From NCBI GenBank assembly GCA_022646745.1, contig CP060262.1:600001-632000 (forward strand): a stretch of DNA of 32,000 nucleotides, in the 5' to 3' direction. The notes beneath the pieces were generated by a model. The model was given only the letters and a program-made list of their open reading frames with translations, made no database searches and was not told the origin of the DNA. Every line of letters starts with the position of its first letter. Positions within the stretch are counted from its first letter, which is position 1. Below, in pieces: positions 6,931-32,000 of this stretch. This DNA comes from Planctomycetales bacterium. GTDB taxonomy: Bacteria > 4484-113 > JAFGCY01. The position numbers and the translations under genes were made by a program.

Positions 6931-7998
6931 TCAGAAGGTCTTGTTGAAGTAGACAGCGCCCTCGAAGAGCTGCAGCACGTAGAGCTCGAAGCGGGTGTCG
7001 ATGCCCGCCGCACCCATGTCCGGGATGCCGGTCTGGATGAACTCGGTGCGCTCCGTGGCGTAGCGGTCGGACTGGGCGCTCTCCTGGCTGCCGAAGCCGA
7101 AGATCATGTAGCCCGTCACATTGGTGCCCCACTGGTAGAACTCATTGCGCAGGGTGACCAGGTTGTCCACATCAGGATAGGCGGAAGCGGTGACGATCGG
7201 GATGTAGGCGAAGTCGCCGGGGCTGAAGTAGTCGCCGTCGTCCACGCCCCACTTGCAGTTCTGGCTGAACACCGCCGGGGTGATCGCACCTATCGGCAGC
7301 GCTTCGCTGTCATGACGCAGGACCGTAGTACCGGTGATGCTGTCCGCACCCACGGTGATGCTAGGCCCGGCCGCGCCTGAAGGATCACCCTCAATGCTTG
7401 CCAGCAGGAAGGGGTTGAGTTCAGCGTTGAGGGATACGACATCCTCAAGGTCAATCACATCCGGGGAAGTGGTGAAACCGAATACATTCTGCATCCGGCG
7501 GGTACCGACGCCTGCCGCTCCGCTGAACACATTGACGGGGTACTCGGAAAGGGCATCGTCCACGATCAGGGAGTCGAAGTAGCGCTCGTAGTCCACATTG
7601 CCGGCCACCAGCTGGGTGGCGCGGGCGTTTGCGATCTGCTCATGCACCGGCACCGCGGAGTTGTTGCGGTGGCCGTAGCCGCCGAGGATGCCGTTGGCCA
7701 CGTCCCACTGTGCGGGGTAGTCCAGCGCGCCCTGGGCATACAGCTCGCCGTCACCCAGCGCATGCCATTCCCAGGGGGCCATGATGTCGATCGCGACACC
7801 GGGGTAGTTCCCCTCGTGGTTCTGGGCATAGCTGGCAAGGGCGACTTCAATGTTCGCGCAGTTTCCGCGCACGGCGTTTTCCTTCGCGGTAAGCGAAGCC
7901 TGCCGTACGGTCGGGGCGAGGATGATCACAAGCACGGAGACGATGCCGATAACAACCAGCAGCTCCACGAGTGTAAAGCCCTGCTTTGTGTATCTCAT
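6931..7998 (-). CDS. Type IV pilin / pseudopilin with prepilin-type N-terminal cleavage-methylation motif (355 aa)
   Basis: MRYTKQG|FTLVELLVVIGIVSVLVIILAP has a short leader, Gly at -1, Phe at +1 and Glu at +5. I trimmed the start to the ATG at 7998, which has GAGGGG 5 nt upstream. The track start at 8043 adds 15 non-pilin residues. The upstream intergenic region 8044-8187 is AT-richer than the surroundings. Confidence 0.85.
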   Translation of the reverse strand: MRYTKQGFTLVELLVVIGIVSVLVIILAPTVRQASLTAKENAVRGNCANIEVALASYAQNHEGNYPGVAIDIMAPWEWHALGDGELYAQGALDYPAQWDVANGILGGYGHRNNSAVPVHEQIANARATQLVAGNVDYERYFDSLIVDDALSEYPVNVFSGAAGVGTRRMQNVFGFTTSPDVIDLEDVVSLNAELNPFLLASIEGDPSGAAGPSITVGADSITGTTVLRHDSEALPIGAITPAVFSQNCKWGVDDGDYFSPGDFAYIPIVTASAYPDVDNLVTLRNEFYQWGTNVTGYMIFGFGSQESAQSDRYATERTEFIQTGIPDMGAAGIDTRFELYVLQLFEGAVYFNKTF

Positions 7999-8187
7999 CG
8001 CAACCCCTCGCTGGCGAAACTGAATGTACGTCGCTGCAACCAAGATATATTACACCGTTCCGTAGATTCTATAAACATGGGACATATCCGTGGCATACCG
8101 TCAAATGGTGTGCCCCGTGCCAATAAAGACGCCCTTCCCCGGCTGCGGTTACAGGATTTGCCGGATAGATCCGTTATTTTGCGGCAT

Positions 8188-13291: not shown

Positions 13292-14350
13292 CTATCCGCC
13301 GACGGAACGGGGGATGTAGATCTTGGTACGGCTGATAACGTTGCCCGGGATCGGCACCGAGATGGTGACGGTCACACGAGAGTCGGTAACCTCACTGCAG
13401 CTCACCTGGGCACCGTTGATGCCACGGGAACCGCCTTCCTGCATGGAGAAGCGCGGAGCGTCCTCGGCCAGGCCAAGGCTGAAGTAGGCAGTGGAAACCA
13501 CTCCGATCTGGATCACGCTGTGGCACTGCAGTGCCGCAGCGACCTGCTCCACCGTGCGGGTGGCCTGCAGGGTGGCGAGATACACAAGGATCTCGTTTTC
13601 ATCTGTGCTGCCGCTCCTGGGAGGCTTGAGCTGGTCCGGGATCGCGCTGTCAACGAAGGTCAGCGGATCAACACGGCCGGTCTCGGGGATGAATTCATCC
13701 GGGTTCTCGTCATCCCAGGGAGAGGTCAGGCGGCCTTCGAGGTCCTTCTGCTTGGCACGCAGGATGTCGCGCGGGTCGAGCTCCATGAAGGCATCGACGG
13801 GGTCGAGCTCCTCTGTCTCCTCTACGGCTTCCTCCTCGATCGGGGCGGACTTGTCCATGCCCTCCTCGTCGGCGGCAGCCTCAGCACAGGGGTTCTCCTC
13901 CGCAGCCTCATCGGCAGCGCAAGGGTTCTCCTCGGCGGCTTCCTCAGCAGCGCAGGGATTCTCTTCGGCAGCTTCATCGGCAGCGCAGGGGTTTTCCTCG
14001 GCTGCTTCAGCACAGGGGTTCTCCGCGGCTTCCTCAGCGGCGCAGGGGTTCTCCTCCGCAGCTTCGCCACACGGGTTCTCGGCAGCGGCCTCACCACAGG
14101 GGTTGGCCTCCGCTTCGGCACCCTCGCAGGGATTCGCTTCAGCGCCATCCTCGGCACCGGCCACGGCGGCCTCACCCTCAGGTGCGGCGGACGCCTCGGA
14201 ACCGGCATCGGCAGGCGGGCTGGACTGGCTGCGGCCTGAATACTGCTGTGCCATCTGCTCAGCCGGGTCCGGGCCATTGTTGCATGATCCGGCCAGGAGC
14301 AGGGCTCCAAGGGCCAGGGTAGCAAGGATCTTGTAGTTCATAATTCTCAT
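13292..14350 (-). CDS. PilP-like pilus-assembly lipoprotein with an acidic Cys-containing tandem-repeat linker
   Basis: 352 aa. Lipobox LLLAGSC. The linker holds nine (A/E)NPC repeats. It is followed by GRVDPL (compare the PilP RDPF motif) and a C-terminal beta domain ...QIGVVSTAYFSLGLAEDAPRFSMQEGGSRGINGAQVSCSEVTDSRVTVTISV. The gene sits directly after the PilM-N and PilO-like genes. The assignment rests on architecture and position, not a measured similarity. Confidence 0.55.
   Translation of the reverse strand: MRIMNYKILATLALGALLLAGSCNNGPDPAEQMAQQYSGRSQSSPPADAGSEASAAPEGEAAVAGAEDGAEANPCEGAEAEANPCGEAAAENPCGEAAEENPCAAEEAAENPCAEAAEENPCAADEAAEENPCAAEEAAEENPCAADEAAEENPCAEAAADEEGMDKSAPIEEEAVEETEELDPVDAFMELDPRDILRAKQKDLEGRLTSPWDDENPDEFIPETGRVDPLTFVDSAIPDQLKPPRSGSTDENEILVYLATLQATRTVEQVAAALQCHSVIQIGVVSTAYFSLGLAEDAPRFSMQEGGSRGINGAQVSCSEVTDSRVTVTISVPIPGNVISRTKIYIPRSVGG
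13871..14143 (-). repeat. In-frame imperfect tandem repeat (27-33 bp units) encoding 9 x [A/E-rich]-NPC
   Basis: The protein reads ANPCEGAEAEANPCGEAAAENPCGEAAEENPCAAEEAAENPCAEAAEENPCAADEAAEENPCAAEEAAEENPCAADEAAEENPCAE. The DNA shows recurring gcaggggttctcctc-type units on the plus strand. Confidence 0.85.
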
Positions 14351-14362
14351 CTCACTGTCCTG

Positions 14363-15199
14363 TTAGCAGGAGTAAGCTCCCGGCGGATCCGGCGGAGCGT
14401 CTCCGCTGGCGGCCTTCTCGGGGTTGATGAAGTACACGGTCATGCGGATCGTCCAGGTCTGTCCGCGACGGATGAAGCTGCTGTTGTCCGGGTCGCCATC
14501 AGTCTTGATGCAGTGGATCGTGAACAGCTTGTCAGTCATCTTGCGGCTGGTACCCTGCTGGATGCTGCGCACGAAACGCATCACATCTTCATAGGTGCCA
14601 CCGAACTTCTCCAGCGTGATGTTGTACGGCGTAAGGAAACTGGACTGGCCAGTCTTCAGCACCTCAGTGACCGGGTTACCGTTGCTCTCCGGATAGTAGA
14701 TGATCGGGAAGATATCCGGACCGTTCTCGATGAGGTTTCCGCGGGGAATTGTCTCGAACGGAGTCATCGCCATGTTGATGCTGTACTCGTACTGGTCAAC
14801 GAGGATCTTGGATTCACCCGTGATCTGCAGGTAACCGGACTGCAGCACCAGCGGTGAGAAGGTGTCCTCCCAGAAGGGGATCACATCATCCTGGTTCTGC
14901 AGGAACAGGTAGTCCAGCGTGCCGAGCTTCTGGTTGAGGGCCAGCTTGACGCGCTTGGCGGTCTCCAGCTTGGCACCCTTCTTGCGATAGGTGTCAATCT
15001 GGGTCTGCAGGTTGTTCTTCTTGCCCTCGAGGCCGGCGATCTCGTTGGTCAGCTTGTTCTTGTGGCTGTTCACGAAGACCGCGGCGACGATGATGAGCAC
15101 GAGGAACACCACGCCAAGGACCTGCGGGGTCAACAGCGGCTGCTTCGGTGCATTCTGCTCAGGCGGCGGAGCCGCTCCTCTTCTAGGTGCTGACGACAT
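14363..15199 (-). CDS. PilO-like pilus assembly protein (TM segment + coiled coil + C-terminal globular domain)
   Basis: 278 aa. TM segment LLTPQVLGVVFLVLIIVAAVFV, then the coiled coil KLTNEIAGLEGKKNNLQTQIDTYRKKGAKLETAKRVKLALNQKL, then an alpha/beta region. AGAGGTGA lies 7 nt upstream of the ATG. The gene overlaps the PilM-N stop by 17 nt. The call is by architecture and gene order. Confidence 0.55.
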   Translation of the reverse strand: MSSAPRRGAAPPPEQNAPKQPLLTPQVLGVVFLVLIIVAAVFVNSHKNKLTNEIAGLEGKKNNLQTQIDTYRKKGAKLETAKRVKLALNQKLGTLDYLFLQNQDDVIPFWEDTFSPLVLQSGYLQITGESKILVDQYEYSINMAMTPFETIPRGNLIENGPDIFPIIYYPESNGNPVTEVLKTGQSSFLTPYNITLEKFGGTYEDVMRFVRSIQQGTSRKMTDKLFTIHCIKTDGDPDNSSFIRRGQTWTIRMTVYFINPEKAASGDAPPDPPGAYSC

Positions 15200-17105
15200 C
15201 GTCTATCACCTCTTCAATCTGGATAATATCCTGCACCGCCGCCTCCTGGTTGACGATCTCGTTCTGGAGGTCAGTGGTTACCTCAAACTTCCACTGGATG
15301 GTCGAGGTCTCCGTGAAGTCACGCTGGAAGAAGTCCTCAATGGAAGCACCCGGCTGGAATGAACCGCGGGGCAGCTTGTAATCCTGCATCGGGCGGGTGC
15401 CGGACTGGGCCGGCGCCGCAACGCTGGTAGTGGAGGTACCGGGACCGGGGCTGCTGGAAATGCCGCGGCCGATCGGGCCCGAACTGCCACCGCCGCCGCT
15501 GCCGCCACCACCACCGGCACCGCCGGCGCCACCGGTGTCCGCATTCTCGGAAACGCCGGTGTTGGTGAAGTACGGGCTGCGGTCCAGGTTGATCAGGAAC
15601 TGGTAAATGTCCACACGGTCAACCGCCACACCTTCCATGGTCACCGTGTTGGTGCTGGCTTCGAAGTCAATCTGATCCAGCCACACACGGTCGTTGATGC
15701 GGTTACCGACCTCGTCCATGATTTCTGGCCAGATACGCTGCTCCTTGAAGAGGGAGAAGATCTGGTTGAACTTCGGACGCTGGGCGATGATGTCGTTCTT
15801 GTTCGCATCGAAGTCATCCGCCGCGGGCTTCAGCCTGGCGGCCTCACCCTCGCGCTGCTGGACCTCACCGTTGAGAGTATTGATCTTGCCGTTGAGGTCC
15901 TTGTCGATGCTGTAATACCAGAACCCGATGGCCAGCAGGATCACCACACCGATGGCGGCAATCTGCTTGTTGATGGCCTTCGTGTAGTAGGAAGGCGGCA
16001 TCAGGTTCAGTGATTTCTTCTTGCGGAAATGCTCGAGGCAGAGGCCGGCGGCCACGGGCAGCTTGGAGGCTTCCTGGTTGAGGTGCTCCAGGCTGTAGGT
16101 GCCCTGGCGGTACTGCAGCATCGAGCTGAGGCTCAGGTCAGTCACCTCGAGGCCCGTCTGGTCCTCAAGGTACTTGGCGAGGTTCGGGAAGATCGTGCCA
16201 CTGCCGAACAGCAGCATCTTGCCGACGCGCTCAGTGCGCTGCGCCTGGCTCTCGTAGTAACGGATGGAGCGGATCAGCTCCGACACGAAGCCGCTGAACA
16301 CGGAGAGCAGGGCCTCGCGCAGGCGGTTATCCTCGGTCGGGTCGATCTCATCCTCGGGGATGGTCAGGTCGACGGGGTCGGCCTTGAGGTATTCCTCAGC
16401 CTCCTGGGCACTGACGCCGAGCAGCTGCCCGACCTTGGCCAGGATGTTGTTGTAGCCAAGCTCGACCGGACGGGACAGGCGGAACTGGCCCTTCAGGAAG
16501 AAGGACAGGTCAGTCACCGTGTCACGCATGTCGATCAGGCCGACTGCGGAGGTGTAACCCTCCATGCTGCTTTCGATCAGGTTCCAGGCCGCCAGCGAGG
16601 TGATCTTGATACCTTCGCACTCGATGCCCGCTGAGCGCATGGTTGCGATCAGTGAATCGACGGTGGTGGCACGGGTGGCCACCAGCAGCACTTCCTGCAT
16701 CGCCGGGTTCGCACCCTCACGGGCCGGGAGCACCTTGTAGTCATACACGGTGTCACCCGGGGGGAAGGGTACGTACTGGTTGATCTGCAGGGAGATGGCC
16801 TGCCTGGTCTGGGCAGCGCCCATCTTGGGAAGTTCAATGATGCGGGTGATTGCAGCCTTGCCGGAAAGCGAGATGATGGCGCGACGCGCCACGATGCCGT
16901 TTTCCTTGAGGATCTCCTTGATCCGGTTCCCGAGCTGTCCGGGTTCCGCCACACGTCCGGCGGCGAATACCGAGGACGGGATCTCACCAACCGCGAAGCG
17001 CTCCAGGATCATTTCCTTGCCCTTGCGGCTGATTGCGGTACAACGCAGCTCGTTCGACGTCAGATCAAGGCCTACATCGTATTTCTTTGCAGCTCCTTGA
17101 GCCAT
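15183..17105 (-). CDS. pilMN: PilM-PilN fusion protein (actin-like PilM fused to the PilN TM/periplasmic module) with a Gly-rich C-terminal extension
   Basis: I trimmed the start to the ATG at 17105, which has GGAGG 5 nt upstream. The PilM-like part reads YDVGLDLTSNELRCTAI..ISLSGKAAITRIIELPKM..AISLQINQYVPFPPGDTVYDYKVL..LLFGSGTIFPNLAKYLEDQTGLEV. At nt ~16000-16017 comes LNLMPP (compare the PilN N-terminal INLLP motif), then the TM segment IAAIGVVILLAIGFWYY, a coiled coil and a PilN-like domain. A TGGAGGAGGGGGSGGGGSSG linker and ~90 further aa follow. Confidence 0.85.
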   Translation of the reverse strand: MAQGAAKKYDVGLDLTSNELRCTAISRKGKEMILERFAVGEIPSSVFAAGRVAEPGQLGNRIKEILKENGIVARRAIISLSGKAAITRIIELPKMGAAQTRQAISLQINQYVPFPPGDTVYDYKVLPAREGANPAMQEVLLVATRATTVDSLIATMRSAGIECEGIKITSLAAWNLIESSMEGYTSAVGLIDMRDTVTDLSFFLKGQFRLSRPVELGYNNILAKVGQLLGVSAQEAEEYLKADPVDLTIPEDEIDPTEDNRLREALLSVFSGFVSELIRSIRYYESQAQRTERVGKMLLFGSGTIFPNLAKYLEDQTGLEVTDLSLSSMLQYRQGTYSLEHLNQEASKLPVAAGLCLEHFRKKKSLNLMPPSYYTKAINKQIAAIGVVILLAIGFWYYSIDKDLNGKINTLNGEVQQREGEAARLKPAADDFDANKNDIIAQRPKFNQIFSLFKEQRIWPEIMDEVGNRINDRVWLDQIDFEASTNTVTMEGVAVDRVDIYQFLINLDRSPYFTNTGVSENADTGGAGGAGGGGGSGGGGSSGPIGRGISSSPGPGTSTTSVAAPAQSGTRPMQDYKLPRGSFQPGASIEDFFQRDFTETSTIQWKFEVTTDLQNEIVNQEAAVQDIIQIEEVIDDVVST

Positions 17106-17165
17106 TCTAACCTCCACCGAAGAAACCCGTACTTAGAGACACGGGCGCCCCACTAAATGTTCCGC

Positions 17166-17217: not shown

Positions 17218-19989
<2,772 letters not shown>

Positions 19990-20104
19990 CCAATCGCTCC
20001 TCACGGACAGATTAACAATCCGTGTAATTTCCTGCCCATACCAACAGGGCAGTATCCAACTGTGCAGCGCTAACAGTAGCACGGGGCTACGGTGCAATTT
20101 GGAT

Positions 20105-20256: not shown

Positions 20257-23200
20257 CTACTCGGAGTTATCCGAGAACCAGAGGATCTTGTAGCTGGCGC
20301 TGCGTGCCGGGCTGATCAGACCCCTGGAGGCGTCAAGGTCGGAAAGCTGGTCAACGCCACGGTTGTTCGCCAGCGGGCCGGCATCGAGGATGACGGTCTT
20401 CGAGCGGTCACGGGCCAGGGTGGAGGTATCCAGCAGGGCGCTGGAGGTTCCGCCGCTGGCGGTGATCGCCGCGCTGGAGTCCACTCGGTAGACGTAGCTG
20501 CGGCAGGTGATGAACGGGGCGATGTCGTCCAGCCAGTTGGTGCGGACCACGAACTCACCGGCACCTGCATCCCAGTACTCTTCGTAACGGAAGGCGGACG
20601 GGCCGGAGTAACGGCGCAGGCCGGACGAGCGGTCATTGCCGTTGAGCGTTATAGTCGCATCCAGCGTACCGGTGAGCGGGAAGCTCTGGTTGCCGGCTGA
20701 GTCGTCGATCACCTTGTAGAGGTCGAAGATGTTCTGGAACGGCGGGTTCGGGATGAAGGTACCCGCGGTCACGCCGTTGGACTCGAACACGCCGACCTTG
20801 TTGCGGCCGTCCACAACATCCTCAACCCCGGTCAGGGCACCCAGGCTAAAGCTGCCATCGGTACCGACGGTCAGGCCCTGGTTGCCACTGCTGTAGGTGA
20901 AGTAATGGCGGGCGTCGAAGGACCAGCGGGAGTAGTTGTTGCCGCTGTTGTCGGACGGGTACTGGCCGGTGGCCGCCCAGGTACCGAATCCGCCGCCGCC
21001 GGCGTAACGGTTGTTCTCCCAGTTGCTGTTGCTCGCCACGTCGTTGAGGTACTTGGCGTAGTTCTCCTTGCTCTCGTTCACGTTGAAGTTGAAGCCAGGC
21101 TCAGGCACGCCGTCACCATCCACATCGATGCCGATGTTGATGGCCAGCGGCTCCCGCACCACGGCCATGTCACTCGGGGAGTAGAACATGTTCGCTGCGT
21201 CGCCGTTGTCCAGGTTGTAGTAGCTGCCTGCCATGTTGTCCCAGGTGTTGAGCATCTGGGTGTTGGCCTGGCCCAGCGCGCCATCGCGGTTGGCGATGCC
21301 GTACTGGTGCGGGTTGGTACCGTCGAAGGGGCCGATCATCGGCAGGTGGTCCACGCGGAAGTTGCCCAGGTTGAGGGAGGCAGCAGCAGCGTTCGCACTC
21401 TGGGTGTAACCGAAGTTGCCGTCGGCATCAGCCGGGGTCGGCTTGTTCTGGTCGTAGTACAGGGTGCGGTAACGGATCACCTTGCGGGCCAGCACGCGGG
21501 CGGCAGCCTCGGTCATGTGGCTGTCGTTCACCTGATCACGTACGAAGTGGTAGGTCTCGTTCACACCGTTGTTGTCGATGTCATCCACCACGTCATAGTC
21601 ATAGGCACGGTTGGTGATGATCTTGCGGAACAGCGCGGTCAGCACTTCCTCCGAGGCGGTGTTGATGTTCACACGGCCCTCGGTGTAGGTGTCGTAGTAG
21701 TCCTCGATGTTCGCATTGCCGAAGAAGCCCTGGCTGTAGCTGACCTGCCACTGCGGCACGTCCAGCGGGTCCTTGGAGGCGTAGTTGCCGATTGAGCGGA
21801 ATGCCTGGTTGGTATCCACGCCGACGATGTCACCAAACACCTGCAGGTCCGCCTCCATCAGGCGGCCGCCACGGCCCTCGGAGTCCGGCTTGTTGCCGAA
21901 CACCTGGGTGGTGTCATCGCTGAGCGTCAGGTGCGGGTCGGTCCAGATGCGCACCGCGTGCATCGGGCGGCCCTCACGGTCGGTCACCACGCGCGGCGCG
22001 GTGTTGCCGTACTCGATCGGGGTCATGTAGCCGTCCGCGAAGATCGTGTCGTTCACGGTGACCACGCCGCCGCTGTTGTCACTGACGGTCATCTGCACGG
22101 TGTAGGTGCCGGCGCTCGGGACCACGAAGGTCACGGGCTCATCGTTGCCGCCCGGCAGGCGCGGGTCATCCGGGCCGTCGCCGCCGAAGCTGTCGGCATC
22201 GGTGCGGCTGACGCTGCCCTGGCTGGAACCGCTGCTGTCAAGCAGGGCGAGGTTCACGTTGTAACCGCCGTCGGCCAGTCTGCGGCCGCCGCTGACGGCG
22301 TAGTGCACCTGGGCGATGAACGGAGCCACGCCGCTCGGCGGGTTGACGATCAGGTCGCCCCACAGCGGGATGCTCTCGGCGACACGGACCACCGTGGTGT
22401 CGGTCGCCACGTTGCCGCTGTCATCGGTCGAGCGCACCTCGACGCTGTAGGTGCCCGGCGTGTTGTAGACGTTGCCGAAGATGTGGATGCTGCCGTCGCC
22501 GACCGTGACCACATCGTCATACACGGCGTCGCCGTCGTAGTCGATCTCGAGGTCGTAACCCGGGGTGCCGCCGTCGGCGGAGACCCAGAACTCGATGAAC
22601 TCACCGGTGCTGCCGCTCGGCGGGGTGGCCATCACGTGCACGCTGTGCGGCGGCTCGACGACCGTGAAGGTCTTCATGGCGGAGTTGACCACGCCGCTGC
22701 CGTCACTGACTTCGCACCAGACGCGCCAGGCGCCGGCACCGCTGTCAGCGGGCACCCAGAACGCCTCGTCCTGGATGTCCTCGTAGGGCACGAGGATCGG
22801 GCCGGAAATGCTGGCCGAGACCGGCGGGCTGGTGCCTGCGTTGTTGTCCATGTCAACCGGCTGGAAGCCGCCGCCGTTGTCGTACTCGACGAACCAGCGG
22901 TAGCTGTAGGAGTTGAACTCGTTGGCTCCGCCGCTCGGGAAGGCCGTGAAGCGGATCGGGTCACTGTTGCTGGCGACGATGGAATCGATGTAGATGTCCA
23001 CACCGAGGGCACGGCGCTCAGGGCTGGACGAGCCGTTGCGGTCGCCGACGAAGACGGCCTGGCTGTCGAAGCTGAAGCTGCGCTGGCTGGAGGGCAGCAC
23101 ATCGCTGCTCCAGGCCCAGCCGTTGTACACGCCGCGACGGGCGGTGTAGTAGTCGAAGATACCGTTGGGCTGCGGGCGGCCGACGTTCGGGGCGGCCTGC

Positions 23201-26200
23201 GGGAAGCTGGCGCCACGCACGTTCAGCGGGACCTCGGCCCAGTTGTTGAAGCCGTTGTTGACCGCGTACTCGTAGGTACTGGACGGGTTGCCATCCTGCG
23301 GGCTCTCGCTGCCGTCGTTGTTCCACAGCGTGTTGGCGTTGGCATCGGACAGCCAGTTGAAGCTGCTGCCCTCGCCATGCACGGACTGGTGCAGCATCTG
23401 GGTGATGCCTGAGATGTTGCTGGTCACGAACGGTGCGCTGTAGCTGACCCAGTTTGTCAGGCTCGTGGCGAACTGGCTGTCACCGCGCGGCACGTAGAGC
23501 TGGTCGACGGTCTCGTACTGGCGGACGGCATTGTTGGTGCTGCCCGGCAGCGGGTTGTCGGTCAGGGTGGCGAAGGTCTGGTACAGCGCGGTCATCGTCA
23601 CCTTGTGGTCGCGGCTGTTGTTCCACTGCGCCACGTTGAGCGTGCCCAGGTCCGTGTCGTAATCGTCACGTCCCACGCGCACCACCGGCAGGGCGAAGCC
23701 CGCACCGCCGCCGTAGCGCTCGCTGCCGGTCTGGCCGGCGGCGAAGGAGTTCACCCAGTAGCGACCGACGGTGTAGCCAGCGCCGTTGAGCTCGGGGCCA
23801 GCCCCGAAGCTGTGGGTGATCACCGCGTTCTCGACCTCAATGCCGTTCTGGGTTCCATCACCACGCGTGGTGTCGGCGACGAAGAAGATGTCGTCGACCA
23901 CGCTGTCGTTGTCCCAGTCAACCTCGATGAAGCTGGCGGCTGCGCCGGCGGCACTCAGGTCGAACGGGTAGTTCATCTCGATGTGGAACTCGATCGGGGT
24001 GTTGAAGTCGGCGAAGGTGGCATCCGCCCAGGCGTTGCCACTGAAGCCGTTCTCCGTGAAGATCTCGTACTCGTAACCGATGCGGAACTGGTTGGCCGGG
24101 ATGTTGACCGTCCAGATGTCATCCACCACCCACTCGGCGGGCACCGCGTTGATGCTCACCAGGTCACCGATGTTGAACACACCGAGACCGGCGCCGGGGG
24201 CAATCAGCTGGACCGTCAGGTCATTGCCGCCGTTGAAGGCGGTGATGGTCCAGGTGGAGTTGCCGTCCGTCACGTTGGTAAGCACCAGGCCGATCAGGCT
24301 GTTGTTGGCGAAGCGGTTGAGGGTGATGTCCCAGTTGCCGCCGCCATTGTCGGTGAAGGCATTCACGGTCGCGGTCTGCGTGCCGGTGAAGGTGTTGTTC
24401 ACCACGTCGAGGATGCCCGGGCTGTTGGCGGTGCTGCTCACCGTCCAGGTGCCGATCTGCACGCCGTCACGGGTCTGCAGCACGGTGTCGCCCACCATGA
24501 TGCCACCCTGCGCCGGGCCGTTTATGTCACCGACGAAGTCGTAGGGGGCGGCCAGCTGGTCGATCACCTGGTTGACGGAATTGCCATCAACCACGCCGGT
24601 GCGGTTCACGCCGGTGCCGTTCACGAGGCCCGTGCCGAAGCTCGGGTCGCCCGGGTTGCTCAAGCGCAGCTCAGATCCGCTGACGACGTCGAGCACGTTG
24701 GCGGTGGAGCCGTCCGTGATGTTCAGCACCAGGTCGCCGACGCTAACGCCGCGGCTGCCGGCCTGGGCGAAGTTGTTGTTCGTGTCACGCAGCACCGTGC
24801 CGGAGGGCTCGTTGCTGGTGGAGTTGCCACTGGTCACCTGCTCACCGCCACGGGTGCCACTGGTGCCGTTCAGGTCGATCTGCCACTTGCGGCGGGCCAG
24901 AGCGGTGTTGATGCCGCCCACCGCGCTGCGGAAGGCCAGGCCACTGCCGGGCTGCGGGTTGAAGCTGGCACCGCGGGTGTCGATGTCCGGCCAGATGTCG
25001 GCCAGGATGCCGTAGGCACCGTTGCTGTCAACGAAGCGGCTGATGCTGTAGGCATCGCCGATGTTCCACTGCGGGGCGCTCAGGCTGCCGCAGCCGACCT
25101 CGTTCTGCGAGATCACGCTGACAACGCTGGTGGTGGCTCCGGTGTTCAGGTTGGTCACCAGGTCGCCCGGCAGCACGCCGGCGCTGATGAAGCTCGCCGC
25201 ACCATCCGTGAAGGACGGTGTGCCGGCAAGGAAGATGTTGCCGATGAAGCCGCTGGCGAGCACCAGGTTGGTGCCACTCACGTTGGCAAGGTCATGGATC
25301 ATCACCAGCTGGTGGCTGACGGCTGTGCGCCCGCTGACGAGGTCCTTGACCGTCAGGGTGGCGTTGTAGTTGCCGATGCCGTCGCCGGCGTAGTCATGGG
25401 TGATGCCGAGGTTGCTGCCGATCAGCTGGCGTCCACCGGACGGGTTGCTCAGTGAGCTGTAGCTGTAGTCGATCTTGCCGTCGCCCTGGAAGTCCAGGTC
25501 GTACTGCAGGTAGGCAGCATCATTCACGGACAGGCTGCCGATCAGGTCGAAGGTCACGTTGAAGCCGGTCTGGAAGATGTAGCGGCGGTCACTGGTGCCG
25601 CCCGGGGTCTGCACGGTGATGAAGCCGGTGCGGGCGCCGTCCGGCACGCGCACGGTCAGCTCCTGCTGGCCGTAGGGCGAACCGCCGATGTTGAGGATGT
25701 CAACACCGCTCGGGGCCGTCACGCCGGCACCGGTCGCGCTCACACCACCGGCGAAGTGCACGGTGTTGTTGCTGGCAACCGGGTCGAAATTGAAGCCGCG
25801 GATCACGATCGCCTGGCCGTTGGCGGCCACGTCGGGCTCGATCGCCGGGTCGATGGTCGCACTGCCGATGTAGGGTGGGTTCGCACCGCCCGCTGCGCTG
25901 TTGTTGGTGCCGGCCGTGATGCTGGCATTGCCCGGCGGGTTGGCCGCCAGCACCGCCATCGGGGTGCGGGCGATGCCGGAGGTGTCGGGCACACCGCCAG
26001 CGCCGGTGCCGAGGTTGCTGAGCGTCACCTGCGCCACGTCATGCGCGATGAAGGACTGGCCACTGGAGGGCAGCAGGTTGTTGCGGTCGAGCACGAAGCA
26101 GTGCACGAAGTACACGCCCTGCGCATCCGGGATGCCGTCCGCACCGGCTGCACCGGTCTCGTTGTCATAGTTGTCAAGCTGGCTGAACTCGAAGCTCGGG

Positions 26201-29200
26201 CTGGCGTCGTTGGAGCGCATCTGCACCGTGGTGCTGACCGCGCCGCCGCCGGTCGTCAGGCTGTCGAGGTTCACGATCGGGGCCGCCGCGTCGACGGTCT
26301 CCATCGGGATCACGCTGTCCAGCACGTGGTTGCCGGTGCCGTTGTACTTCGGACGGGTCACGACCCAGTAGTAGCCGTAGCCGTCACGGCCGCCGTCCAC
26401 GGAGGCGCTGGCGGTGAAGCCGAGGCGGCTGTCACCGAGCTCACGCAGGGTGATGCTGGCGTTCATCTCCGGCGGGATCGCGGTGCCGGTGCTGCTGGAG
26501 GACTCATCGTCCTTCACGAGCTTGCTGAACACGGTGTCCGTTGCGCCGCCGTTCTCGGTGACTCGCAGGCGCAGCCAGTACTCGGTGTTGTTCGGCAGGC
26601 CGCTCGGGTCGAAGAAGGTGTTCCACTCGGGGCTGCTGCTGCTGCCGGCCACGACCAGCAGGGTGCCGGGCACGAGCTCTGCGGCTGAATAGTCGAATCC
26701 CGGGGGAGTGACGCGGGACGGACGCGGCGGGCTGCCGAGGCCGGGGAAGGTGGCGATCGGTCCGGCGCCGTCGGGACCCTGGTAGGGGCCGCCGACACCG
26801 TTGCCAAGCGTCGCGTCAAGCACGCGCAGTTCCCAGTTGTAGTTCAGGTCGCCACCGGCGGCACTCATCTCGACCTCGACACTGGTGTCGTTGTCGAACA
26901 CGGAGACCTCATGGCTGGCAAGCTGGGCCTGGAAGCCGGCGGCGGTCTCGATCGGGGAGATCACCGCGCTGTCGAAGGCGTAGCCGCCGGTGGGCACCGG
27001 CGGATAGCCGCCGCCGTAGTCCACCGGGAAGGTGCCACCATCAGACGGCGTGGTCTGCACGCGGCCGCCGGCATAGATGTTGCCGGGCAGCGCGGGCGTG
27101 CCGCTCGCGATCGGCAGGCCGCTGGAGTCAACGAAGGTCCGCAGGTCATACATGTGCAGCGTGACCGTGTTGCCCTCCGGGTTGACGCGGATCTGGATCG
27201 GGTTGTTGATCAGCTGGCCCGGCTGCTCCGTCGGCCAGGTGCCGTCGAAGTCATCCGGGTCGTCATCAGGGCCGAGGGTGTCGCGGTACTCCCAGTCGAA
27301 CAGCAGGTAGCTGCCGCCGCCGGTGGTGTCCGCGCCGCCGTAGCTCGAGTAGATGTCATAAGTGTCGCCACCGGTGCGCACCGGCAGGATGTTCACCGCG
27401 AACGGGATCGCGGCCTCGGTGTTGTACTGCAGGAAGACCTTGGTGATGTCATCCGCACGCAGCTCCGGGTCCTCCGGCTCGTTGGCGGCGTCATCCCAGC
27501 GGTAGGCCAGGATGCGGCCGGTGGCGTAGGGGTCGCCCTCGCCGGTCCAGGCCCAGCCGGGCCAGTCAGCCGGAGCCACGCCGGTATCCCAGGCGTTGCC
27601 CTCGTTCGGGCGCCAGTTGCCATCGTCCGTCACCGCACCACCGAGCGGGTACGGGACCTGCTGGTAGCTGAAGTTGCGGCCGAGGCTGCCGACGCCGCCC
27701 AGCGGGGCCAGCAAGCTGGCGAAGGCCGGGTTGTTGGTGAAGTCAGGTCCAAGCACATCCAGGTTGTTGAAGTTGTCATAGGCCTGGATCGTGACGTTGC
27801 CGGTCATGCCGGGGAACACCGGGCTGACTGAGCGGATCTGCTGCGCGGTGAGCGGGATCTGCACGGTGTCGGGGCTCAGCGAACCGGCGTCATACGGGCC
27901 GCCCGCGGAGGGGAACACGCCGGTGCGGTTGGCATGGTTGAAGTACAGCATGTACAGCACAACGTCCTGCGCCGGGTCATCGGCCGTACCGAGGTTGCCG
28001 TCAGGGCCGGTCACGTTGTCGAAGTACCAGCTGACGGGCACCACATCACTGAAGGTGGCGTAGTAGCTCACGATGCCATTCGGGTTGACGGTGTCGTCAC
28101 GGTAGTCCGACGGCGGGTCGGACATCAGGCTGACGCTCATGCTGCTGAACTCGTAGAGCGGGACCTGCAGCAGGTCGGCCGCGCTGTCGAAGGTGCCCGG
28201 GTTGAGCAGGTTGGCAGCGGTGAACACGCCGGGGCCGTGCGGGGTGACGACCGGGTTGGCATTGTTGGTGTTGGCCAGCGTGGCGAAGTCGAAGCCGTCC
28301 GGCGGGTTGTTGTTCGGGCCGAAGTCGAAGCCGCCGCCGAAGATGCCGAAGATGCGCTCGATGAAGAAGAACGCGCCGCCGCCGAACAGGTTGCCGATGC
28401 CCGGGCTGGCCGGGTGGGACGCCATGTTCACGCCGTTCCAGTCGTAGGTGTAGTCATCGGCGGTGAACGGCGTACCGTTGCGGTAGAGCACGATCGAGAG
28501 GCAGCTGTCCAGGCTGAACTCGGGGTTCAGCGCCGGGTAGCCGGCGAAGTTCGTGAAGGCCTCGTCGCTGGTCGGGAACTGGTGGCCGAAGGCGCCGACG
28601 TTGTAGGGGTTGGCCTCACTGTCGCGGTGCGGCACCAGCAGGCCGCCGCCGGTCGGGTCGTAGCGCGGGTCGTCATTGGGTGTCATGTGGTCGGACGCGC
28701 CACTGCGGCCGGTGCGGTCAACCGCCGGCAGGGTGATCTTGCGGAAGTTGGTGCTCGGCAGGTGCTCGCGGATGTAGGCGTACATCTCCTCCGCGCGGTC
28801 GCGGTAGTCCTCGAGCGAGAAGCCGCCGGCGGTGGCGGTGACGTCGTAACGCAGGTCGTTGACATTGTCAGTGTCGCGCATGTCGTCCGGCACGGTGCGG
28901 CGCACCTGGCCGAAGAAGAACGGGTCACCGGCCTCGTAGGCGTTCACCAGGTCGGCATCCGGGCCGACGTCGGTGATGTAGGTGCCGATCACGTTGGTGT
29001 CATAGCTGTGGATCGTCAGGTAGTCCTTCAACCTGTTGAACTTGGCGCGGGTCATGCCGGGCACGTTGAGCAGCTGGTCCAGGCTCGAAAGCGCGAAGGG
29101 CTGCGGCAGCGGCATGTCGTCCTCGTCGCTGGCAGCGAAGTCCCAGAAGATGCTGCCGACGGTGCCGCCCGCGAGATTGATGCCGAGCGCGGTCAGCGGC

Positions 29201-30780
29201 GGGGTGACGTTGGCGACGTCATAGCGGTAGCCGGCGGCGCCGATGGTCGGGTCGATGTTGGGCTCGACGCTGCCATCAGCGTAGCCCGGGTCGATTGCGT
29301 TGAGCGTGTCCTGGCTCGGGTTGAGGTACTCGAGGATGTTGAGTGCCAGCTCCAGGTCGACGCCCGGCAGGCTGGTCAGCATCTCGACACTGTGGCGCGC
29401 GGCCTCGTTGCCCTGGGAGATGCCGTCGCCATCGGTGTCGCCAAGGTAGAAGTGCTGCACGTTCTCGCCCAGGTCAGGCCAGGAATAGCCGTCCGGGGTC
29501 GGGTCAGGGATGCCGGTGGACGGATCAAGCGTACCGAAGTCGATATCGCCGTCATTGGACAGCGTGCCGGCCGGGATGTTCCAGTTCCAGCGCTGGTTGG
29601 TCAGGCGATCCGGGAACAGCGGGTTGTCAATCCACTTGAAGCCGAGCTCGTTGAGCTGCTCGTTGTAGTTGAAGTCGTTGGTTGCCAGGCCCTCGAGGTT
29701 GTAGTCGACGTCAGCGGCCTCCGGCATCAGCACGCGCACCTTCTTGGCGAAGATGTTCAGGTTGATGCGGCCGGCCTCATCGGTCACGTCGGCATAGCTC
29801 TTGAGCAGGTCAGTCGGCACGGGGCCGCGGTCGAGGTCGGTGAACACGCTCTCGTAGATCGCGATGCGCGAGTTGAGCATGTAGTCACGGATGAGGTTTC
29901 CGTTGTCAAGGCTGCGCTCGACGGCGCTTCCGGCCCCGTTCAGACGGGGCTCGTCAGCATTCGGGAAGCCTCCGTTGCCATGCAGCTGGCCTTCCTTGCC
30001 ATCAAACGGATCGCTGCCGGCATCGTTCAGGTCATAGCCGTCGTCAATACCGTCGGCATCGTCATCAACCGCCACCGCGAGGAAGGGATTGAACAGCCAG
30101 ATGGTCTCACCCGTGTTCGGGCTGGTGCCGTTGTAGCGGTTCGTCGAGGACAGCAGCGAGGGCTGGCCGAGGTAGGTCGGCGAATGCATCTGGCTGAAGC
30201 TGAAGTCGAACTCATAGTTGCGGGGGTTGTCATAGACATCCGTCGGCAGCACGGAACGGTCACCACGGGGACTGGTCCAGTAGTCATCACCCGTTCCGAG
30301 GATGTCATCGAGGCCCGCGGCGCCGACGACACCGCTGTCCGGCACCTGGTCACGGCGGAAGCCGCTGACCGGGTCGAGCACGACGATCGCCGTGGCCGGC
30401 TGGTTGGCCGAGCTGTAGTAGTCCGGCAGGGACTTCTGCTGCACCACGAGTGAGATGGCGTCGTTGAGCGCCTTCTGGCTCGCAAGGTCCAGCTTATGTC
30501 CCTTGATCGCCTCGGCGGTGCTGACCGCTTCCGTGTTGAGGCTGGTCAGGACCAGCGTCACCAGCGGGAGCAGGAGCGCCACGAAGATGATCACGGCCAG
30601 CAGCACGACGCCCCGGTGGCCGCGCTTCACAGCGCGTCCGCGGAGCTGCCCACAAGGGGCGTGCTGAGGGGTGTTTCCGCCATTGGATATTCCAGTCATA
30701 TCAGTTCCAGGGGTGAGGTCAGCCGTGGAAGCACTGCCGCTTTCCGGGGACCCACCAACGAGATTTGTGTAAGTGCGCAT
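20257..30780 (-). CDS. Giant (3,507 aa) GspK/PilX-like minor pseudopilin-type protein carrying PKD-like, IPT/TIG-like and Asp-rich Ca-loop-like modules; candidate pilus tip adhesin
   Basis: A single open frame with GAGG just upstream of the ATG. Hydrophobic N-terminal segment RGVVLLAVIIFVALLLPLVTLV (nt 30541-30612). GspK-type motifs: DEAGRINLNIF (nt 29749-29781), LTSLPGVDLELALNILEYL (29323-29379), SLDQLLNVPGMTRAKFNRLKDYLT (29014-29085) and GRVNINTASEEVLTALF (21628-21678). IPT-like region IDPAIEPDVAANGQAIVIRGFNFDP...FITVQTPGG (~25570-25870). PKD-like regions DFQGDGKIDYS...YNATLTVKDLVSGR (~25290-25565) and three more at ~22040-22950 (e.g. YDGDAVYDD...PGTYSVEVRSTDDSGN). Confidence 0.85.
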   Translation of the reverse strand: MRTYTNLVGGSPESGSASTADLTPGTDMTGISNGGNTPQHAPCGQLRGRAVKRGHRGVVLLAVIIFVALLLPLVTLVLTSLNTEAVSTAEAIKGHKLDLASQKALNDAISLVVQQKSLPDYYSSANQPATAIVVLDPVSGFRRDQVPDSGVVGAAGLDDILGTGDDYWTSPRGDRSVLPTDVYDNPRNYEFDFSFSQMHSPTYLGQPSLLSSTNRYNGTSPNTGETIWLFNPFLAVAVDDDADGIDDGYDLNDAGSDPFDGKEGQLHGNGGFPNADEPRLNGAGSAVERSLDNGNLIRDYMLNSRIAIYESVFTDLDRGPVPTDLLKSYADVTDEAGRINLNIFAKKVRVLMPEAADVDYNLEGLATNDFNYNEQLNELGFKWIDNPLFPDRLTNQRWNWNIPAGTLSNDGDIDFGTLDPSTGIPDPTPDGYSWPDLGENVQHFYLGDTDGDGISQGNEAARHSVEMLTSLPGVDLELALNILEYLNPSQDTLNAIDPGYADGSVEPNIDPTIGAAGYRYDVANVTPPLTALGINLAGGTVGSIFWDFAASDEDDMPLPQPFALSSLDQLLNVPGMTRAKFNRLKDYLTIHSYDTNVIGTYITDVGPDADLVNAYEAGDPFFFGQVRRTVPDDMRDTDNVNDLRYDVTATAGGFSLEDYRDRAEEMYAYIREHLPSTNFRKITLPAVDRTGRSGASDHMTPNDDPRYDPTGGGLLVPHRDSEANPYNVGAFGHQFPTSDEAFTNFAGYPALNPEFSLDSCLSIVLYRNGTPFTADDYTYDWNGVNMASHPASPGIGNLFGGGAFFFIERIFGIFGGGFDFGPNNNPPDGFDFATLANTNNANPVVTPHGPGVFTAANLLNPGTFDSAADLLQVPLYEFSSMSVSLMSDPPSDYRDDTVNPNGIVSYYATFSDVVPVSWYFDNVTGPDGNLGTADDPAQDVVLYMLYFNHANRTGVFPSAGGPYDAGSLSPDTVQIPLTAQQIRSVSPVFPGMTGNVTIQAYDNFNNLDVLGPDFTNNPAFASLLAPLGGVGSLGRNFSYQQVPYPLGGAVTDDGNWRPNEGNAWDTGVAPADWPGWAWTGEGDPYATGRILAYRWDDAANEPEDPELRADDITKVFLQYNTEAAIPFAVNILPVRTGGDTYDIYSSYGGADTTGGGSYLLFDWEYRDTLGPDDDPDDFDGTWPTEQPGQLINNPIQIRVNPEGNTVTLHMYDLRTFVDSSGLPIASGTPALPGNIYAGGRVQTTPSDGGTFPVDYGGGYPPVPTGGYAFDSAVISPIETAAGFQAQLASHEVSVFDNDTSVEVEMSAAGGDLNYNWELRVLDATLGNGVGGPYQGPDGAGPIATFPGLGSPPRPSRVTPPGFDYSAAELVPGTLLVVAGSSSSPEWNTFFDPSGLPNNTEYWLRLRVTENGGATDTVFSKLVKDDESSSSTGTAIPPEMNASITLRELGDSRLGFTASASVDGGRDGYGYYWVVTRPKYNGTGNHVLDSVIPMETVDAAAPIVNLDSLTTGGGAVSTTVQMRSNDASPSFEFSQLDNYDNETGAAGADGIPDAQGVYFVHCFVLDRNNLLPSSGQSFIAHDVAQVTLSNLGTGAGGVPDTSGIARTPMAVLAANPPGNASITAGTNNSAAGGANPPYIGSATIDPAIEPDVAANGQAIVIRGFNFDPVASNNTVHFAGGVSATGAGVTAPSGVDILNIGGSPYGQQELTVRVPDGARTGFITVQTPGGTSDRRYIFQTGFNVTFDLIGSLSVNDAAYLQYDLDFQGDGKIDYSYSSLSNPSGGRQLIGSNLGITHDYAGDGIGNYNATLTVKDLVSGRTAVSHQLVMIHDLANVSGTNLVLASGFIGNIFLAGTPSFTDGAASFISAGVLPGDLVTNLNTGATTSVVSVISQNEVGCGSLSAPQWNIGDAYSISRFVDSNGAYGILADIWPDIDTRGASFNPQPGSGLAFRSAVGGINTALARRKWQIDLNGTSGTRGGEQVTSGNSTSNEPSGTVLRDTNNNFAQAGSRGVSVGDLVLNITDGSTANVLDVVSGSELRLSNPGDPSFGTGLVNGTGVNRTGVVDGNSVNQVIDQLAAPYDFVGDINGPAQGGIMVGDTVLQTRDGVQIGTWTVSSTANSPGILDVVNNTFTGTQTATVNAFTDNGGGNWDITLNRFANNSLIGLVLTNVTDGNSTWTITAFNGGNDLTVQLIAPGAGLGVFNIGDLVSINAVPAEWVVDDIWTVNIPANQFRIGYEYEIFTENGFSGNAWADATFADFNTPIEFHIEMNYPFDLSAAGAAASFIEVDWDNDSVVDDIFFVADTTRGDGTQNGIEVENAVITHSFGAGPELNGAGYTVGRYWVNSFAAGQTGSERYGGGAGFALPVVRVGRDDYDTDLGTLNVAQWNNSRDHKVTMTALYQTFATLTDNPLPGSTNNAVRQYETVDQLYVPRGDSQFATSLTNWVSYSAPFVTSNISGITQMLHQSVHGEGSSFNWLSDANANTLWNNDGSESPQDGNPSSTYEYAVNNGFNNWAEVPLNVRGASFPQAAPNVGRPQPNGIFDYYTARRGVYNGWAWSSDVLPSSQRSFSFDSQAVFVGDRNGSSSPERRALGVDIYIDSIVASNSDPIRFTAFPSGGANEFNSYSYRWFVEYDNGGGFQPVDMDNNAGTSPPVSASISGPILVPYEDIQDEAFWVPADSGAGAWRVWCEVSDGSGVVNSAMKTFTVVEPPHSVHVMATPPSGSTGEFIEFWVSADGGTPGYDLEIDYDGDAVYDDVVTVGDGSIHIFGNVYNTPGTYSVEVRSTDDSGNVATDTTVVRVAESIPLWGDLIVNPPSGVAPFIAQVHYAVSGGRRLADGGYNVNLALLDSSGSSQGSVSRTDADSFGGDGPDDPRLPGGNDEPVTFVVPSAGTYTVQMTVSDNSGGVVTVNDTIFADGYMTPIEYGNTAPRVVTDREGRPMHAVRIWTDPHLTLSDDTTQVFGNKPDSEGRGGRLMEADLQVFGDIVGVDTNQAFRSIGNYASKDPLDVPQWQVSYSQGFFGNANIEDYYDTYTEGRVNINTASEEVLTALFRKIITNRAYDYDVVDDIDNNGVNETYHFVRDQVNDSHMTEAAARVLARKVIRYRTLYYDQNKPTPADADGNFGYTQSANAAAASLNLGNFRVDHLPMIGPFDGTNPHQYGIANRDGALGQANTQMLNTWDNMAGSYYNLDNGDAANMFYSPSDMAVVREPLAINIGIDVDGDGVPEPGFNFNVNESKENYAKYLNDVASNSNWENNRYAGGGGFGTWAATGQYPSDNSGNNYSRWSFDARHYFTYSSGNQGLTVGTDGSFSLGALTGVEDVVDGRNKVGVFESNGVTAGTFIPNPPFQNIFDLYKVIDDSAGNQSFPLTGTLDATITLNGNDRSSGLRRYSGPSAFRYEEYWDAGAGEFVVRTNWLDDIAPFITCRSYVYRVDSSAAITASGGTSSALLDTSTLARDRSKTVILDAGPLANNRGVDQLSDLDASRGLISPARSASYKILWFSDNSE

Positions 30781-30908: not shown

Positions 30909-32000
30909 TCAGTTCGAGACCGGGTTCTTTTCCTGCAGCTTCTCCGAGGGAGTGCTGGCCCGGATGGTCGCACTCGGATCCAACGGATCGCGGAACAGGG
31001 TTCGCACCGCATCGAACACGTTCTGGTCCACGCGGCGCTCCTGGATCCGGCTGTCACGCGGGCTGGTCATCAGCTCGAGGTAGTACGGATAGGCTCCGCT
31101 CTCAACCAGGGGACTGTTGACCGGGACCGTGCGTGTCATCACCAGGTCCTTGTTGACACCGATGTAGTCAGCCTGCTGGTTGTACAGCGGCTGGGTGCGG
31201 GAGGGATCCGAGAAGGGGATCGGGCTGTCGAGGCGGTAGTACACGGTGCTGCCGGTCTTGCCAGCCTTACCACTCTTGTTGCGGCGCTCCTCGATCACAT
31301 CGTTGGGGGTGGACACCACGGTCACACGCACCGCTCGCATGTAGGGCAGCCACCAGCCGGGCACCGGGTCATCCGGGATGCCGTCGCCGTCCGGGATGCC
31401 GTCCGCATCGCCCAGGTCGCCGACGCCGGTCGGGTTCAGGCTGCGCTGGTAGTAACCGGTACCGTGCAGGCGCTCCATGTCGGGACGCAGCTGCGCGATG
31501 CCACCGTCAATCACTTCACCACCGCTGAGGCTGGTGGTCACATAGGCATAGCGGTCGATCGGCGAGTTGTCATTGCGGCCGTCGCCGTTTGAATCGATGT
31601 TGTCGAACACGGCGCTGTTCCAGCCACTGGTCAGCGTGCCGCCGGTCACCTCACCGAGGCCGACACCGGTCGGCGGGGCAACATGGTCACCGGTCAGCTT
31701 CAGCGGGTCGAAGCCCTCGGGATAGCTGTCCTGCAGTTTCCAGCTGAAGCCGCCATACTGGGCACCGGTATCCGGGTCGACGTAGAATCCGTCAGTGCCG
31801 TTGAAGGCCACGTCGATCTGGCGCATCTCCCAGTGGTCCACCAGGGGCTCCATGCCGACCATCGAATTGTCACGCTCATCATTGGCGGCAATCCAGTTGA
31901 TGCTGCCGTCAAGCAGGCTCTGGTAACAGATCTCGACGTTGCCGCCATTCACGCGGGAAAGGTAGACCGGCACCTCATGCAGGTACTCGTACTTCACACG
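30909..32000 (-). CDS. C-terminal part of a secreted Asp-loop-rich protein, possibly a GspJ/PilW-class minor pseudopilin (N-terminus outside the window)
   Basis: The frame stays open to position 32000; the track start at 31997 is just the first in-window GTG. Ca-loop-like motifs DNIDSNGDGRNDNSPID and GDADGIPDGDGIPDD are present. The block LPYMRAVRVTVVS resembles the conserved strand of GspJ/PilW-type proteins. The gene sits immediately upstream of the GspK-like gene, as gspJ does. The functional call is weak. Confidence 0.6.
   Translation of the reverse strand, partial: RVKYEYLHEVPVYLSRVNGGNVEICYQSLLDGSINWIAANDERDNSMVGMEPLVDHWEMRQIDVAFNGTDGFYVDPDTGAQYGGFSWKLQDSYPEGFDPLKLTGDHVAPPTGVGLGEVTGGTLTSGWNSAVFDNIDSNGDGRNDNSPIDRYAYVTTSLSGGEVIDGGIAQLRPDMERLHGTGYYQRSLNPTGVGDLGDADGIPDGDGIPDDPVPGWWLPYMRAVRVTVVSTPNDVIEERRNKSGKAGKTGSTVYYRLDSPIPFSDPSRTQPLYNQQADYIGVNKDLVMTRTVPVNSPLVESGAYPYYLELMTSPRDSRIQERRVDQNVFDAVRTLFRDPLDPSATIRASTPSEKLQEKNPVSN

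Follow-up and report, generated by a model that had tools for sequence, protein, structure and literature searches.

Type IV filaments owe both their start and their binding target to the complex at their tip, and several tip pilins with inserted or modular parts have already been described, among them GspK with its alpha-domain, ComZ with its beta-solenoid, CofB, PilB/PilC and CpaL (PMC13533445, PMC8179133). According to Ellison et al., addition of a beta-strand that completes the sheet of the K-type pilin, in cis or in trans, licenses assembly; in CpaL, in ComZ and in the competence pilus of V. cholerae this donor strand comes after a large insert, and in CpaL the middle of the protein is partly dispensable for assembly whereas the C-terminal strand is needed (PMC13533445). 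In a survey of InterPro from 2021, modular pilins reached at most 860 residues (PMC8179133). The present analysis concerns a gene of 3,507 codons in a Planctomycetales bacterium (assembly GCA_022646745.1, contig CP060262.1), situated in a stretch of 32,000 nucleotides (positions 600,001 to 632,000 of the forward strand) that is referred to as the window. Its product is probably a GspK/PilX-type minor pilin occupying the K position of a type IV filament, split by a long insert and displayed at the filament tip.

GspK-like sequence at the two ends of the giant protein

The gene is an uninterrupted open reading frame (ORF) at 20257..30780 (-) and encodes a K-position minor pilin-like protein; an alternative start at M28 (nt 30699), which is the one called in the short-read contig L002, would give 3,480 aa. 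A preliminary description of the window, made from its letters and ORFs, had reported this frame with GspK-type motifs near both of its ends, and the ORF and each quoted motif are present at the residues named there.

The N-terminus (aa 51-122; 30415..30630 (-)) comprises basic residues, an invariant Gly57 and a hydrophobic helix with alpha1, and was aligned by hhalign to GspK 1-79 (E 5e-4 with the joined construct introduced below, 1.2e-3 with the full-length profile). It reads HRG followed directly by VVLLAVIIFVALLLPLVTL, with Gly at -1, a hydrophobic alpha1 and no Glu at +5, like E. coli GspK, and both G57 and the helix positions are invariant in the family alignment. That this hydrophobic segment stays uncleaved, as stated in the preliminary description, is an assumption. 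The N_methyl motif had no Pfam match in the giant protein. The entry to the alpha-domain is marked by DEAGRINLNIF (aa 334-344; 29749..29781 (-)), the counterpart of 'DAQxCFNLNAL' in GspK, in which D334, E335, G337, R338, N340, L341 and N342 are invariant across the family. It is followed by two helix-hairpin-helix (HhH) motifs (aa 468-592; 29005..29379 (-)) containing LTSLPGVDLELALNILEYL (aa 468-486) and SLDQLLNVPGMTRAKFNRLKDYLT (aa 566-589), the second of which (556-592) matches GspK where its first SAM-like subdomain ends.

The distance from aa 589 to the next GspK-like element, at aa 3035, is 2,445 residues. This element, from GRVNINTASEEVLTALF (aa 3035-3051) to AARVLARKVIRYR (aa 3035-3105; 21466..21678 (-)) and including TEAAARVLARKVIRYR (aa 3090-3105), corresponds to the start of the second SAM-like subdomain (Pfam T2SSK). 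In the reference GspK of E. coli K-12 (327 aa) T2SSK_1st covers residues 103-211 and T2SSK residues 216-274, and these boundaries identify the N-terminal motifs of the preliminary description as the end of the first subdomain and its NINTA motif as the start of the second. The protein ends in a conserved, strand-rich tail (aa 3415-3507; 20260..20538 (-)) with the segments RSYVYRVDSS, SKTVILDAG and SYKILWF.

Asp-rich loops of the DxDxDG type occur at aa 239, 448, 3067 and 3219 (four observed, 0.9 expected from shuffling). They had been attributed to the interior of the protein; the loops exist, but all of them lie in the GspK-like ends and none in the interior, and their conservation is only partial. 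The DDDADG... loop is likewise present, at nt 29998-30066 rather than at about 30003-30072. The region immediately before the NINTA motif (aa 2900-3030; nt 21691-22083), which includes GRPMHAVRIWTDP and GGRLMEADLQVFGD, is among the most conserved of the family.

In the native protein, the NCBIfam GspK model (NF037980, 307 positions) gave E 4e-5, with its best stretch at aa 556-592 (model 172-208), so that the N-terminal region does have significant similarity to GspK. Pfam matches were confined to sub-threshold hits of HHH_3 (aa 565-589) and of T2SSK (PF03934; aa 3037-3053, model 1-17 of 63, E 0.027). HHH_3 scored 19.5-25.9 bits against a threshold of 27 in the window protein and reached E 2e-9 in the best homologue, its motifs lying about 100 aa apart. 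The N-terminal part thus covers the GspK model up to position ~208 and the C-terminal part takes it up from ~209-217 onward, as expected of a split match, and a complete GspK domain is present at neither end.

Effect of removing the insert

A joined construct was built from aa 45-600 and aa 3020-3507, with its junction at 556|557, which removes aa 601-3019 (2,419 aa). Against the NCBIfam GspK model it produced a single stretch (512-592) that spans the junction and corresponds to model 172-230 (E 6.3e-6). Joined constructs of the homologues behaved in the same way: 10 of 11 matched this model (best E 1e-9), and when divergent members were run singly, all four matches spanned their own junction, one of them extending to model position 277 of 307. 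The N-terminal parts of the homologues had GspK similarity at E 1e-9 to 3e-7 (NCBIfam T2SS_GspK). Among the Pfam models, T2SSK_1st was found in 6, T2SSK in 7 and HHH_3 in 10 of the 11 joined constructs.

The same mapping was obtained by profile-profile comparison with hhalign against a GspK profile of 13 non-redundant sequences from metagenome loci. Across the junction the joined family profile aligned to GspK 180-259 (probability 82.5%, E 9.8e-6), and when all 3,507 columns of the family profile were used, the four top matches were colinear with GspK: aa 51-122 with GspK 1-79, aa 329-385 with 94-153 (E 0.09), aa 562-590 with 180-208 and aa 3036-3058 with 215-249. No equivalent of GspK 215-327 was found by this full-profile comparison inside the interior of about 2,400 residues. 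A hidden Markov model built from the 13 GspK sequences reproduced the split mapping, though its scores are too low to carry weight by themselves.

The end of the first alpha-domain subdomain and the start of the second are therefore both matched, and become contiguous only once the 2,419 residues are removed. The separation of GspK-type sequence by about 2,400 residues, proposed in the preliminary description, is borne out by this fusion of the two halves into one model match: judged by sequence similarity, GspK-like sequence runs to about aa 595, some 2,440 residues intervene, and it resumes at aa 3035. Searches of PDB sequences with phmmer and with profiles of the N-terminal part, the C-terminal part, the joined family and the full length returned no GspK, only PKD domains together with non-significant ComEA and antibody chains.

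Distribution and integrity of the gene

An exhaustive HMMER search with the joined construct over 1.84 billion representatives returned 32 proteins, which are either giants of 2,306-3,747 aa matched at both ends or fragments of such giants. Word-indexed searches gave only fragments (six with the C-terminal part, two with the N-terminal part and one with the alignment). Scanning of GTDB species genomes with the N-terminal alignment yielded 18 loci, in which the open frames measure 2,845-3,807 aa where the contig permits. The giant form recurs in these 18 species-level genomes and in 11 representative clusters. Homologues of similar length thus exist, and only as giants. The giant protein is colinear along its whole length across the family, with the N-terminal and C-terminal parts best conserved (column identity 0.5-0.65). 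The hosts belong to an uncultivated lineage from wastewater and environmental metagenomes, labelled by NCBI as 'bacterium', 'Planctomycetales bacterium' and, once, 'UBP7'. Activated sludge and bioreactors are among the sources of samples with the gene, SRR6747764 being an example.

Independent assemblies carry the gene intact (L002, as well as L011 and L013 with open frames of 3,426-3,431 aa), which shows it to be real and no assembly artefact. In a 339-kb ENA contig (L001, 10001-21206) a homologue is colinear and split into at least nine reading frames, either through frameshifts of long-read assembly or as a pseudogene. Opposite the giant gene, the other strand of the window (20905-30453 (+)) has several long ORFs, the longest of 839 aa; these are most likely stop-poor frames of coding DNA with 62-68% GC rather than genes.

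Position in a pilin operon

Only 1.1 kb of the window lies upstream of the giant gene, and the order of the pilin genes was read from five relatives (L013, L014, L020, L024 and L027). In all five inspected loci six prepilin genes precede the giant gene, in the order H-I-G-G-G-J-giant. The assignments are weak and were made through the N-terminal helices (GspH E 1.5e-11; PilV/GspI E 4e-7; GspG three times, E 3e-7 to 6e-12), and the J-like prepilin matched the Verru_Chthon-C, HpsC and T2SS-J models (E 2e-7 to 2e-4). The window itself holds the 3' part of a gene for a GspJ/HpsC-like large minor pilin (30909..32000 (-)) that runs off its end and whose product is 90% identical to aa 258-619 of the 619-aa J-like prepilin of L013. 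The conserved order and this J-like upstream ORF place the giant gene in the K slot of a pilin operon. The operon pilins of L013 (1656-9701), of 484, 371, 340, 344, 364 and 619 aa, are two to four times the usual size and match known pilin models through their N-terminal helices only.

The giant gene lies between two terminator-like hairpins. The one on its 3' side (20213-20183 (-)), with a 13 bp stem and a T-run 44 nt past the stop codon, agrees with the gene having its own terminator, as had been claimed, and the other lies between the GspJ-like gene and the giant gene (30898-30867 (-)). The giant gene may on this account be transcribed apart from the upstream pilin genes and the downstream assembly genes.

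The first of these assembly genes encodes a secretin of 959 aa (17218..20097 (-)), equally distant from PilQ, GspD and MshL, whose near-consensus promoter (TTGACA-17-TAAAAT at 20133-20105) lies just past the terminator of the giant gene. The first ~550 residues of this secretin have no family match except a faint STN. It is followed by a PilM-PilN fusion of 644 aa (15183..17117 (-)), with matches to PilM_2 (E 1.5e-33), PilN (E 1.5e-8) and the Amuc_1101 family of Akkermansia (E 5e-34); the presence of PilM and PilN in one chain gives the protein a GspL-like topology. Two conserved genes follow (13292..15199 (-)), for a 278-aa coiled-coil protein with a single transmembrane segment and a 352-aa lipoprotein, both kept in L002-L004. 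They are PilO/PilP-like by position only, since Pfam assigned neither PilO nor PilP to them at E <= 1. Matches to GspC, GspL or GspM were absent among the proteins of the window.

Directly after the pilus assembly genes lie genes for a NuoN/Mrp-type antiporter-like subunit (542 aa) and a Wzy_C O-antigen-ligase-like protein (637 aa) (9680-13221 (-)), an order that is kept in L002, with no other nuo genes nearby. An extra prepilin of 370 aa (6931..8043 (-); N_methyl E 7e-7) sits 9 kb downstream of the assembly genes and shares 42% identity with the third GspG-like gene product of L013, of which it is a paralogue. A 764-aa lipoprotein (2564-4858 (-)) and a 507-aa secreted protein (8188-9711 (-)) have no Pfam or NCBIfam match, and the window contains no competence genes besides an unrelated recR.

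Content of the insert

The segment removed in the joined construct (aa 601-3019; 21724..28980 (-)) is conserved and colinear in the family and is mostly without recognisable domains. The preliminary description had listed IPT/TIG-like and PKD-like modules, of which the latter are solidly supported: two PKD-type domains occupy aa 2715-2905 (22066..22638 (-)), where Pfam PKD matched in two stretches (E 3.3e-9 for aa 2715-2798) and the PKD domain of ColH was retrieved from PDB sequences (E 1.5e-4). PKD was found in 8 of 11 homologues, and the invariant columns contain a further PKD-like signature at about aa 1740-1830. The IPT/TIG-like module (aa ~1640-1735; 25576..25863 (-)) is weaker, being indicated by a weak NCBIfam match (1644-1734) and the sequence pattern, with Pfam TIG significant in a single homologue (E 1e-4). 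The PilY1/Neisseria_PilC beta-propeller had no Pfam or NCBIfam match in the giant protein or in 10 homologues.

The centre of the insert is hypervariable (aa ~1830-2250; 24031..25293 (-)) and carries some five degenerate 'G-D-h-V-x-N-x-T-x-G' repeats. Where homologues differ in length by 30 residues or more, the difference almost always falls within aa 1830-2250, and in the shorter homologues (P0040, P0043 and P0044) blocks of 40-120 aa are missing almost solely there. Self-BLAST of the giant protein detected no internal repeats, the degenerate ones escaping it, and an array of similar domains was accordingly rejected: the insert consists of dissimilar modules in a set order, most of them unassigned, and is no tandem array.

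Proposed function and alternative explanations

In the proposed mechanism the giant protein would be processed at the invariant Gly57 and would form the filament cap jointly with the products of the upstream genes for I- and J-like pilins. The insert would jut from the tip and act as an adhesin or as an array that binds ligands, of which the variable centre (aa 1830-2250) may be the part that contacts the ligand. [quoted passage not shown] With the closing strands placed after the insert, assembly of the tip complex would have to wait until the whole giant subunit had been made and exported. The C-terminal strands are candidates for this closing function on the basis of their conservation, their likeness to the pattern of the GspK tail (S-x-YF-x-L ... 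final hydrophobic strand) and strands predicted with low confidence; the conserved aa 2900-3030, excluded from the joined construct, may also belong to the core fold. That the protein is a K-position homologue of GspK is very likely, and the chance that it is a tip-displayed adhesin is about even. The fuller proposal, in which a single chain of ~370 kDa forms the cap, the GspK fold is opened between its alpha-subdomains, filament initiation is coupled to export and folding of the giant adhesin, and all pilins are oversized, is a tentative one with somewhat less than an even chance.

Several observations count against a split GspK at the filament tip. Scores are far below the curated cut-offs, with 23.3 bits for the native protein and 25.9-38.4 bits for the constructs against 130 for NF037980, 15-17 bits against 24.2 for T2SSK, and a best E of 1e-3 for T2SSK_1st (cut-off 26.2 bits), so that the protein is a distant homologue and not a GspK member by NCBI or Pfam criteria. 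The GspK-model matches sit mainly on the HhH elements, which also resemble ComEA-type HhH, and hhalign of the last 120 residues against GspK gave no match to the C-terminal pilin strands. AlphaFold2 models of the joined construct had a mean predicted local confidence (pLDDT) of 33 from the single sequence and of 43 from a 22-row alignment (predicted template modelling score 0.30); pLDDT of 60-83 was reached only by the HhH elements, the NINTA helix and part of the C-terminal tail, and the packing is unreliable. Foldseek of the joined model against the PDB gave chance matches only (for example ribokinases, E >= 0.4). The split fold is consequently suggested at the level of sequence, the models being of low confidence. 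Among the 1.84 billion representatives there was no GspK of canonical size and no relative with contiguous N- and C-terminal parts that would represent the ancestral state. No ATPase, platform protein or prepilin peptidase is encoded within the window, and the passage of a ~370-kDa tip subunit through the secretin would need an explanation.

The prominence of HhH elements allows for the explanation that aa 1 to ~900 form a complete, divergent GspK- or pilin-like module to which an adhesin was grafted C-terminally, ending in an independent ComEA-like HhH, the apparent continuation of the GspK model then being a convergence of HhH motifs. HHH_3, HHH_5 and ComEA-type models match the joined constructs too, nothing structural ties the C-terminal part to the N-terminal one, and aa 600-900 are conserved yet unassigned, with a weak hhalign match of aa 644-707 to GspK 103-175 (E 0.15). 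This explanation is nevertheless unlikely, since aa 600-3019 contain no match to GspK model 215-307, the sole such match in the 3,507 columns being aa 3036-3058, and model positions run consecutively over the junction in every member tested. The NINTA segment, moreover, lacks the Gly-hairpin of ComEA and carries the GspK form 'INxNT...LxALF', and few regions are as well conserved as the C-terminal tail.

The protein could also be a giant membrane-anchored or secreted surface protein, a cargo or accessory of a type II secretion system (T2SS)-like machinery with an uncleaved signal anchor and not a filament subunit at all. The hairpins on both sides suggest a separate transcription unit, giant genes have been reported beside T2SS-like loci (bioRxiv 10.1101/2023.11.21.568195), and the size of the protein seems incompatible with passage to a filament tip. 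We regard this as improbable in view of the GspK-type N-terminus with its invariant Gly and conserved helix, the matches to GspK itself rather than to cargo families, and the fixed place right after the J-like pilin in the five inspected loci; the Omnitrophota giants differ, too, in their many transmembrane segments and SecA-like domains. Least probable is that the same split architecture serves the capture of DNA for natural transformation through a ComEA-like (HhH)2 in the N-terminal part, by analogy with Thermus ComZ, a precedent given by PMC6561018 as far as it is cited in PMC8179133. The best HHH_3 match (E 2e-9), the ComEA repeat model in 4 of 11 constructs and the ComEA chains that were the only, and non-significant, HhH-type matches in the PDB are in keeping with such a role. 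The HhH/SAM-like alpha-domain of GspK itself, however, is not known to bind DNA, a stretch of 2,400 residues with PKD, TIG and variable repeats typifies adhesins and not DNA receptors, and the window offers no competence genes beyond the unrelated recR.

If the reading as a split, tip-displayed K pilin is true, a K subunit with ~2,400 residues ahead of its last strand would be an extreme test of strand licensing. It raises the questions of how large a tip cargo the secretin and platform can pass, how far the GspK alpha-domain tolerates splitting, and whether adhesin and cap can be one polypeptide. It also gives a functional handle on a conserved and otherwise unannotated 10-kb gene of a poorly known uncultivated lineage.

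Comparison with known systems

The giant protein resembles GspK/XcpX (PDB 3CI0 chain K and 5VTM chain X; NF037980; PF21687 and PF03934) in its Gly, hydrophobic helix and absence of Glu5, in the 'D-x-x-G-x-x-N-L-N' entry, the end of the first SAM-like subdomain and the 'INxNTA..L.ALF' start of the second, all in the same order, in its Asp-rich loops and in the placement of the gene after those of the H, I and J pilins. It differs in length (3,507 aa against ~330 aa), in the ~2,440 residues between the SAM-like subdomains and other inserts of 100-330 aa, in its PilM/PilN-type rather than GspC/L/M neighbours, and in scores far under the family cut-offs.

Among pilins with extra modules, ComZ of Thermus thermophilus has the design proposed for the giant protein, a K-type tip pilin interrupted by a large module and resumed by closing strand(s) (PMC8179133, PMC13533445), but it has ~550 aa and a single beta-solenoid, which is inserted within the sheet rather than between alpha-subdomains, and no sequence similarity between ComZ and the giant protein was found. 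CpaL/TadG of the Caulobacter Tad pilus likewise follows the proposed plan, with an N-domain that resembles a pilin, a long central region and, at the very C-terminus, a strand that joins the sheet of the N-domain again (PMC13533445), but it belongs to a Tad system, has ~600 aa and lacks a GspK-like alpha-domain. The PilX/PilK and PilY1/PilC pairs of type IVa pili would be alike in function, a large tip adhesin being tied to the K pilin via the last beta-strand of its sheet; there a separate adhesin donates the strand in trans, whereas the giant protein would be one chain. In the modular pilins PilB/PilC of S. sanguinis a pilin module carries adhesive modules to the filament tip (PMC8179133), as the giant protein would do, but these are far smaller, have a canonical N_methyl and are C-terminal grafts via a short linker, whereas the extra sequence of the giant protein is internal, so that it fits the modular pilins of Raynaud et al. 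(2021) only as a broad concept. The giant genes of Omnitrophota similarly encode a huge, mostly unannotatable surface protein in the neighbourhood of genes for type IV filaments and for class III signal peptides in an uncultivated lineage; they exceed 25 kb, specify many transmembrane segments and SecA-like domains, and were not described as pilin-like (bioRxiv 10.1101/2023.11.21.568195).

The view taken in the preliminary description, that such a cap protein is of a kind not described, is therefore too strong, as the literature documents K-type minor pilins that have large modules inserted into them or appended to them (PMC13533445, PMC8179133). What appears to be undescribed in the literature searched is the scale of 3,500 aa, about four to six times that of documented K-type pilins with modules, together with the insertion between two alpha-subdomains and the lineage-wide fixation with uniformly oversized pilins.

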